Shown: piece after piece, positions 11,774 to 13,574 of the stretch | Position numbering within the stretch: position 1 is the first letter of the stretch | Layout: every line of letters begins with the position of its first letter | Virus record (IMG/VR): IMGVR_UViG_2721755643_000005 | Reading direction: 5' to 3' (one strand) | Origin: a virus | Lineage: Duplodnaviria > Heunggongvirae > Uroviricota > Caudoviricetes | Length of the DNA: 44,221 nucleotides | Program-made: the position numbers and the translations under genes | The notes under the pieces: generated by a model | Database searches by the model: none | The model's input: the letters and a program-made list of their open reading frames with translations, nothing else | What the model was told of the DNA's origin: nothing

Positions 11774-12121
11774 TTGCCGGAGGCACCTATGGCAAAAGTA
11801 TTTACACCAGAAGAGCGGGAAGAAGTGAAGGCGCGCATTGTGGAACTCGTGCGCCTGAGCGGACGAGAAACTTTTCGACAACTGGCAGATAAAACGGGTG
11901 TCAGTAAGACCGCTATTCGTCGTTTATCTGGTGCGCTTGCGGTCAGTGGTGATGTCTGGCTCTCTGATTGCGGGGTATTTCCATCAGAGCAGGCGTATCG
12001 CGTATGGCGTAAGACACCGGAGAAGGCTGCTAGACTGGCCCCCTGAATCTCCAGACAACCAGTATCACTTAAATAAGTGATAGTCTTAATACTAGTTTTT
12101 AGACTAGTCATTGGAGTACAG

Positions 12122-12487
12122 ATGATTGATGTCTTAGGGCCGGAGAAACGCAGACGGCGTACCACACAGGAAAAGATCGCAATTGTTCAGCAGAGCTTTG
12201 AACCGGGGATGACGGTCTCCCTCGTTGCCCGGCAACATGGTGTAGCAGCCAGCCAGTTATTTCTCTGGCGTAAGCAATACCAGGAAGGAAGTCTTACTGC
12301 TGTGGCCGCCGGAGAACAGGTTGTTCCTGCCTCTGAACTTGCTGCCGCCATGAAGCAGATTAAAGAACTCCAGCGCCTGCTCGGCAAGAAAACGATGGAA
12401 AATGAACTCCTCAAAGAAGCCGTTGAATATGGACGGGCAAAAAAGTGGATAGCGCACGCGCCCTTATTGCCCGGGGATGGGGAGTAA
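12122..12487 (+). CDS. insC: IS2 transposase OrfA (InsC)
   Basis: [56 protein letters not shown]... matches recalled InsC; A6G slippery motif near 12440-12446. Confidence 0.85.
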
Positions 12488-13350
12488 GCTTAGTCAGCCG
12501 TTGTCTCCGGGTGTCGCGTGCGCAGTTGCACGTCATTCTCAGACGAACCGATGACTGGATGGATGGCCGCCGCAGTCGTCACACTGATGATACGGATGTG
12601 CTTCTCCGTATACACCATGTTATCGGAGAGCTGCCCACGTATGGTTATCGTCGGGTATGGGCGCTGCTTCGCAGACAGGCAGAACTTGATGGTATGCCTG
12701 CGATCAATGCCAAACGTGTTTACCGGATCATGCGCCAGAATGCGCTGTTGCTTGAGCGAAAACCTGCTGTACCGCCATCGAAACGGGCACATACAGGCAG
12801 AGTGGCCGTGAAAGAAAGCAATCAGCGATGGTGCTCTGACGGGTTCGAGTTCTGCTGTGATAACGGAGAGAGACTGCGTGTCACGTTCGCGCTGGACTGC
12901 TGTGATCGTGAGGCACTGCACTGGGCGGTGACTACCGGCGGCTTCAACAGTGAAACAGTACAGGACGTCATGCTGGGAGCGGTGGAACGCCGCTTCGGCA
13001 ACGATCTTCCGTCGTCTCCAGTGGAGTGGCTGACGGATAATGGTTCATGCTACCGGGCTAATGAAACACGCCAGTTCGCCCGGATGTTGGGACTTGAACC
13101 GAAGAACACGGCGGTGCGGAGTCCGGAGAGTAACGGAATAGCAGAGAGCTTCGTGAAAACGATAAAGCGTGACTACATCAGTATCATGCCCAAACCAGAC
13201 GGGTTAACGGCAGCAAAGAACCTTGCAGAGGCGTTCGAGCATTATAACGAATGGCATCCGCATAGTGCGCTGGGTTATCGCTCGCCACGGGAATATCTGC
13301 GGCAGCGGGCTTGTAATGGGTTAAGTGATAACAGATGTCTGGAAATATAG
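12445..13350 (+). CDS. insD: IS2 transposase OrfB (InsD), normally made as an OrfAB frameshift fusion
   Basis: 301-aa ORF in the -1 frame relative to insC with DDE-type integrase region; matches recalled InsD. Confidence 0.85.
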
Positions 13351-13574
13351 GGGCAAATCCAGCTGCTGACCCGACACTGATTCGAAAGTTACCTGACGGA
13401 GAAATACGCCGCTACGACAGGCGTCAGAACATAATCTGTCGCGAGTGCAGGAAGAGCGAAGTTATGCAGCGCGTGCTGGCGTTTTATCAGGGGAATTTTC
13501 AGGAGGTGGTGCTGTGAGTGAAATTAGCTATCAGGCTTCAATTGCCGCTGGCATTCGCATCAATGGAGAGGAGC

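Follow-up and report, generated by a model that had tools for sequence, protein, structure and literature searches.

In the classical insertions of IS2 into bacteriophage lambda and the gal operon, polarity was the phenotype that was measured. According to the literature, IS2 is bounded by a left inverted repeat (IRL) of 42 bp, which carries the TA terminus, and a right inverted repeat (IRR) of 41 bp; an A6G heptamer has a role in its −1 frameshifting, and the published biochemistry describes a transposition pathway with a figure-of-eight, a minicircle and a junction promoter, Pjunc (PMC3299598). The lambda ren gene belongs to the pR operon, in which it follows O and P (PMC3640518). The locus described here brings these two systems together: a complete IS2 splits a gene found at the ren position of a prophage.

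The window, i.e., the whole stretch of 44,221 nucleotides that was analysed (IMG/VR record IMGVR_UViG_2721755643_000005), comprises a whole prophage, starting at intR beside the Rac attachment site, ttcA. It is a mosaic, in which a Rac integrase, excisionase and ttcA site are combined with a lambda-like early region and a contractile-tail late module; its late region (~21700–44221) includes genes for a DUF3383 sheath-like protein, a sheath initiator, baseplate J, a spike and a DUF2612 protein. The early-right genes are found in a lambda-like order. A cro-like gene and a YdaT-family gene stand at the start, followed by an O-like initiator (8697–9452), a DnaB-type helicase, a small ORF, a DUF1627 gene (11012–11773) directly upstream of the split gene, the Ren-like gene with its IS2, a NinB-like gene (17177–17776) among nin-type genes, and a Q-like antiterminator (18063–18617). 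Four tRNA genes (18807–19113; Ile, Arg, Thr and Val according to RefSeq) are located between the Q-like antiterminator and the holin, with lysis genes after them, an arrangement as in Stx-type lambdoid phages. Near-identical prophages have intact annotations for the integrase, repressor, replication, Q-like, lysis and structural genes, as for most of the others; the exceptions are a recE-family gene that is truncated, a remnant of ydfC and a small ORF with a frameshift. The RecE-family exonuclease without its C-terminus (~3337–5109) and the frameshifted hypothetical ORF (14365–14786) are annotated as such in sister genomes, and both defects are also present in the IS2-free prophage of E. coli FDAARGOS_943; thus, they predate the IS2 event. 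The prophage of FDAARGOS_943 has a near-identical interior, is located at a different chromosomal site, beside yebY, and carries a different integrase.

Other elements of the prophage were also recorded. A full-length RalA antitoxin sRNA (1557–1735, + strand; Rfam, 207 bits) overlaps a homologue of RcbA (1535–1741, − strand; 91% identity), and tblastn found no homologue of the RalR toxin anywhere in the window, where an AAA ATPase and a Gam-like gene occupy the place of ralR–recT in K-12 Rac; RalA here looks like an orphan antitoxin RNA. Two RNAs adjoin each other back to back at 6411–6599 (− strand), a C4 antisense RNA (75.7 bits) and the Hfq-binding RNA isrK (61.5 bits). They are located at the 5' end of a Rha/Ash-family regulatory gene (~5802–6650), an arrangement that resembles the antirepressor control module of P1/Gifsy type in a Rac-like early-left region. 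A hok/sok type I toxin–antitoxin locus (15176–15500), made up of a sok RNA (15176–15350; 113 bits) and an annotated Hok/Gef gene (~15345–15500), is found in the nin-like region, downstream of IS2.

The IS2 element, a member of the IS3 family, occupies positions 12031–13361 on the + strand (1331 bp) and is the only IS2 copy in the 44-kb window. Its transposase is read in the same direction as the early-right operon, and the element lies upstream of the NinB-like and Q-like genes. IS2 starts with TAGACTGG at 12031 and ends with GCAAATCCA at 13361 (in longer form, TAGACTGGCCCCC at the left and GGGGCAAATCCA at the right). Alignment of the two ends revealed imperfect inverted repeats with a one-base difference in length, IRL (12031–12072, + strand, 42 bp, starting 5'-TA) and IRR (13321–13361, + strand, 41 bp, ending AAATCCA, i.e., CA-3'), and this alignment and the TA left terminus agree with the published IRL and IRR (PMC3299598). 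The product of orfA (12122–12487, + strand; InsC, the IS2 repressor TnpA; 121 aa) matches Pfam HTH_Tnp_1 (E-value, 1.8e-19) and the NCBIfam model 'IS2 repressor TnpA' (276 bits; cutoff, 229), whereas orfB (12445–13350, + strand; InsD), a 301-aa ORF, has matches to Pfam rve, rve_3 and HTH_21 and to the NCBIfam model 'IS2 transposase TnpB' (727 bits; cutoff, 597). The catalytic DDE domain of OrfB contains D132, D198 and E234, that is, a D-D-35-E signature with the 35-residue spacing. The A6G slippery heptamer (A AAA AAG; 12439–12445, + strand), the site of the programmed −1 frameshift to OrfAB, is present, and the OrfAB fusion frame (12122–13350) is open over 409 aa. The element is complete, and every sequence feature for further transposition is apparently in place.

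A megablast search with the 1331 bases found IS2 at 24,018 places in 4,853 of the 5,426 complete E. coli genomes. The window allele is a common one, with 100% identical copies in many genomes, and all 1331 bases are identical to those of many RefSeq loci annotated as 'IS3-like element IS2 family transposase'. Against the IS2 copy in gspK of E. coli K-12 W3110 (L009), 1326/1331 bases match, with differences at IS positions 32, 87, 274, 606 and 900; these are silent or non-coding and leave the OrfA and OrfB proteins unchanged. Position 32, inside IRL, is G here and A in K-12, and position 87 lies just upstream of the orfA start. An earlier reading of this DNA, made from the sequence only, had described a complete IS2 of 1331 bp with intact termini and had proposed an alignment to an IS2 reference as a check; the identical RefSeq copies and the K-12 alignment bear the description out.

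The element is flanked by GCTGC on both sides, at 12026–12030 on the left and at 13362–13366 on the right. The flanks are identical for 5 bp and no further: at the sixth base out, the left side has G and the right side A. The probability that two fixed positions agree over 5 bp by chance is ~1/1024. Stronger evidence came from the empty site in an IS-free relative, E. coli FDAARGOS_943 (NZ_CP065615.1). Across the joined flanks, 999/1000 bases match, the empty site (L002 position 12489) reads GGAGAAGGCTGCTGACCCGACA with one GCTGC, and the uninterrupted gene is annotated as a 130-aa 'DUF977 family protein'. Deletion of 12031–13366 from the window produces a single ORF of 130 aa (11789–12030 joined to 13367–13517), and the restored protein, Val52 included, has exact matches, intact, on 60 public contigs (P0016). 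Four independent control copies of IS2 were each 1331 bp long and each had a 5-bp duplication of its own (GGCAT, AAACG, CCGTA and GGCTG). The duplicated GCTGC and the split phage gene, restored by excision to an ORF of about 130 aa, had likewise been proposed by the sequence-only reading, which pointed to IS-free relatives as the way to name the disrupted gene. The single GCTGC of the empty site and the identical intact proteins confirm both, and in FDAARGOS_943 the disrupted gene is annotated as a member of the DUF977 family.

The target used here (GAGAAGGCTGC followed by IS2; 12019–12030) and that of the K-12 gspK insertion (GGGAAGGCTG followed by IS2; L009 299–308) have GAAGGCTG in common, which adjoins IRL in both targets with a one-base offset; with two sites compared, this may be coincidence, and no similarity to GAAGGCTG was found in the three other IS2 targets compared. 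The related prophages of EC5, MSB1_4I and ETEC1731 carry independent IS2 insertions (L004 2516–3846, L005 3360–4690 and L006 2782–4112, respectively) in other small nin-region genes, ~2.5 kb or less from their DUF977 genes, and the genes hit include homologues of the window ORFs at ~14025 and ~14365. A shared or hot-spot IS2 target near DUF977 genes was considered and rejected, as the sites and duplications in these three prophages differ. The common orientation of IS2 in the three is probably a search artefact that results from joining same-strand pieces.

The 5' part of the split gene (11789–12046, + strand) is an ORF of 85 aa, which comprises 81 native residues with the HTH region, followed by RLAP and a stop codon that are read from the left end of IS2 (IRL). 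The 3' part (13367–13517, + strand) encodes 49 residues and a stop and carries ECRKSEVMQRVLAFY, a motif in common with lambda Ren. RefSeq annotates the two parts as pseudogenes, 'DUF977 family protein, missing C-terminus' and 'missing N-terminus', respectively. IS2 cuts the protein after residue 81, between the N-terminal HTH region, where weak matches to HTH families were found at residues 3–52 of the restored protein, and the conserved C-terminal motif. A 60-aa ORF (13335–13517) with its ATG in the right end of IS2 is in frame with the 3' half (MSGNIGANP + AADPTLIRK...); no obvious Shine-Dalgarno sequence is found upstream of it, and its exact product is absent from a collection of 15 billion proteins.

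The restored protein matches Pfam DUF977 over residues 1–126 of 130 (E-value, 7e-43; 146.3 bits; cutoff, 22.1) and PHROG 142, 'Ren-like exclusion protein' (E-value, 2e-42), and its homologues in phage records, which are 55–64% identical, are named LygF or Ren-like. With lambda Ren it shares 27% identity over 90 residues (BLASTP E-value, 1e-7), a weak pairwise match, and lambda Ren itself has no match to Pfam DUF977 at E ≤ 0.01. As lambda Ren falls below the DUF977 profile, the relationship is treated as probable distant homology together with an equivalent position, and the name 'Ren-like', which is derived from the PHROG label and this pairwise match, is used tentatively; the phenotype by which ren is defined is that it shields the phage against Rex-type exclusion. 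When the DUF977 protein was compared with solved structures and with models of defence systems, only generic HTH noise was obtained, and a full-text literature search for 'LygF' yielded mainly papers on fish lysozyme and Salmonella genome notes, with no functional data. The literature on K-12 YdaW (a retron RcaT blocker and putative transcription factor) was considered as a source of function and rejected: YdaW is unrelated to the DUF977 gene and 97% identical to the upstream DUF1627 gene. The latter (11012–11773) corresponds to a full-length YdaW, with the identity extending over the first 151 YdaW residues; K-12 YdaW is truncated and diverges past residue 151, at the Rac internal deletion. 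Thus, the YdaW literature belongs with the DUF1627 gene and not with the DUF977 gene.

The complete genomes of three Thai stool isolates, RMDEC332, RMDEC364 and VL46, contain both IS2 junctions with 100% identity over 2,336 bases. In addition, the left junction is found in other, draft assemblies, on at least five short-read contigs, five of which encode precisely the truncated 85-aa product; they extend out of the prophage for ~125 bp into the left end of IS2 and then stop, like contigs broken at repeats. The prophages of the three complete genomes differ from the window at about 13–81 positions, mostly in one short patch, and none is identical to it; the closest is that of VL46, with 10 mismatches and one 3-bp indel in 33.8 kb. 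As the insertion is common to several isolates whose prophages have since diverged, it predates their common ancestor. On the evolutionary scale, a young insertion is indicated by the perfect duplication, by the 100% identity of the IS with other copies and by the fact that the restored ORF equals intact alleles. The sequence-only reading had called the transposition recent, and this stands in the evolutionary sense; the event is, however, not private to this genome.

About 55 of the ~80 differences between the window and RMDEC332 or RMDEC364 are located within 21770–21917, a 150-bp patch of the small-terminase gene in which VL46 is the same as the window, a pattern more suggestive of recombination over a short tract than of point mutation.

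The evidence is best accounted for by a simple IS2 transposition into the ren-position gene of a mosaic prophage with lambdoid early genes and a contractile tail, integrated at the Rac site (ttcA–intR), most likely with the loss of a dispensable accessory function; as a whole, this reading is held with high confidence. The pathway is inferred from the published IS2 biochemistry (PMC3299598). An IS2 copy elsewhere in the genome would have been copied out by the copy-out/paste-in route of the IS3 family. OrfAB, made by −1 frameshifting at A6G, would have cleaved IRR and placed it beside IRL; host replication would convert the resulting figure-of-eight into a minicircle, where Pjunc would drive transposase expression for the second step. 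Both IS2 ends would then have attacked the target with a 5-bp stagger at GCTGC, and repair would have produced the duplication. The insertion cuts the 130-aa DUF977/Ren-like protein and leaves an HTH-only fragment of 85 aa. Judged from the interrupted frame, the direct effect is the loss of the full-length Ren-like protein, and the consequence is most likely that a dispensable accessory function was lost; transcription that reaches the nin region and the Q-like gene further downstream may also be somewhat reduced.

Two alternatives dispute the simple insertion. IS2 is a multi-copy element, with 4–8 places per chromosome record in RMDEC332, RMDEC364 and VL46, and such repeats often cause misassembly, so a chimeric join induced by the repeat could in principle have put an IS2 copy into the gene. 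The junctions recur in three separately assembled complete genomes, where both are identical, and the independent short-read contigs cross from the gene into the left end of IS2; the insertion is therefore no assembly chimera. Furthermore, the flanks are colinear with the IS-free relative, and a perfect 5-bp duplication is not created by chimeras. Wherever a multi-copy IS is present, it may also mark a rearrangement breakpoint, produced by homologous recombination between two IS2 copies, or the end of a composite transposon. This generic possibility is opposed by the matching 5-bp duplications, by flanks that are contiguous in the IS-free relative and by the single IS2 in the window. Both explanations are extremely improbable, and the chimera and the IS2–IS2 recombination breakpoint can be regarded as excluded for practical purposes.

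The remaining alternatives accept the transposition and assign it a larger effect. IS2 might disable or 'domesticate' the prophage through a polar block, with transcription ended, probably via Rho, the late genes under-expressed and the prophage locked in. Its position upstream of, and co-oriented with, the NinB-like and Q-like genes fits this, as does the persistence of the insertion in a lineage of several isolates. Polar IS2 insertions sensitive to rho mutations are on record, judging by a reference listed in PMC12095673, and outward promoter activity of the wild-type IS2 right end is described as undetectable (PMC12095673). The consensus scan of 11500–14000 likewise found no sigma-70-like promoter, and hence no promoter-like site at or past the right junction; nor was a hybrid outward promoter or terminator found on the + strand at the IS2 junctions. 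The same scan revealed no + strand intrinsic terminator in 11500–14000, which speaks against the block, and any polarity would therefore have to be Rho-dependent. Lambdoid early transcripts are typically modified for antitermination, which classically suppresses IS polarity and would counter a block here. Moreover, the nin/Q region may have other promoters, and the rest of the prophage is largely intact, against the prediction of a long-standing inactivation. A polar block of this kind is thus considered unlikely. Slightly more doubtful is a non-neutral insertion that was retained because it changed the behaviour of the prophage, whether by Rho-dependent polarity that lowers Q-like expression and damps lytic induction, or through the 85-aa HTH-only remnant acting as an altered DNA-binding or dominant-negative factor. 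The suggestion in the sequence-only reading that the insertion may reflect domestication or inactivation is not supported, given that the gene is a Ren-like accessory gene and the surrounding genes are annotated as intact in near-identical prophages; on present evidence, the prophage cannot be called inactivated.

Simple transposition with the loss of an accessory gene, the preferred reading, has mainly practical implications. The insertion is an ordinary and well-understood event, already known from the RefSeq annotation of sister genomes, and it raises no new question of biology. In annotation, IS2 and the halves of the gene on either side of it, now two 'DUF977 family protein' pseudogenes, should be treated as a single event, and the prophage should not be counted as defective on the IS2 insertion alone. 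The junction is a usable lineage marker, found in the Thai stool isolates and several draft assemblies. Other IS insertions were observed in prophages of this type. RMDEC332 carries ISCro1 (IS66 family) in the tail region (window ~33571–33578; L003 2404–5019), which is absent from the window, VL46 and RMDEC364, and in FDAARGOS_943 an IS600 splits the lysozyme gene (L002 18910–20066). The IS2 described here is one more independent insertion of this sort.

Compared with the described systems, the element itself is the IS2 of E. coli K-12 (insC/insD, OrfAB; IS2 group), with the same length of 1331 bp, the same ends, A6G heptamer and OrfA/OrfB proteins, and a 5-bp duplication; the W3110 gspK copy differs from it by five single bases, none of them protein-changing, and the RefSeq protein WP_088895425.1 is annotated on both window-type and K-12 IS2. 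The gene that was hit occupies the same position as lambda ren, after the replication genes in a pR-type operon, and its product and lambda Ren (96 aa) have in common the C-terminal motif K/R-ECR-x-S-x-x-M-x-RVLA-x-Y, which reads ECRKSEVMQRVLAFY here and ECRQSAAMKRVLAVY in lambda. At the same time, the window protein is 34 aa longer than lambda Ren and 27% identical to it, and a DUF1627 gene intervenes between the helicase and the window gene. Based on these features, the two proteins are probably distant homologues with an equivalent position. Like the classical IS2 insertions in lambda and the gal operon, the IS2 of the window is co-oriented with transcription, in this case within the early-right operon of the phage, between the replication and late-regulator genes. 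Unlike the classical cases, it interrupts an accessory gene and not a replication gene.
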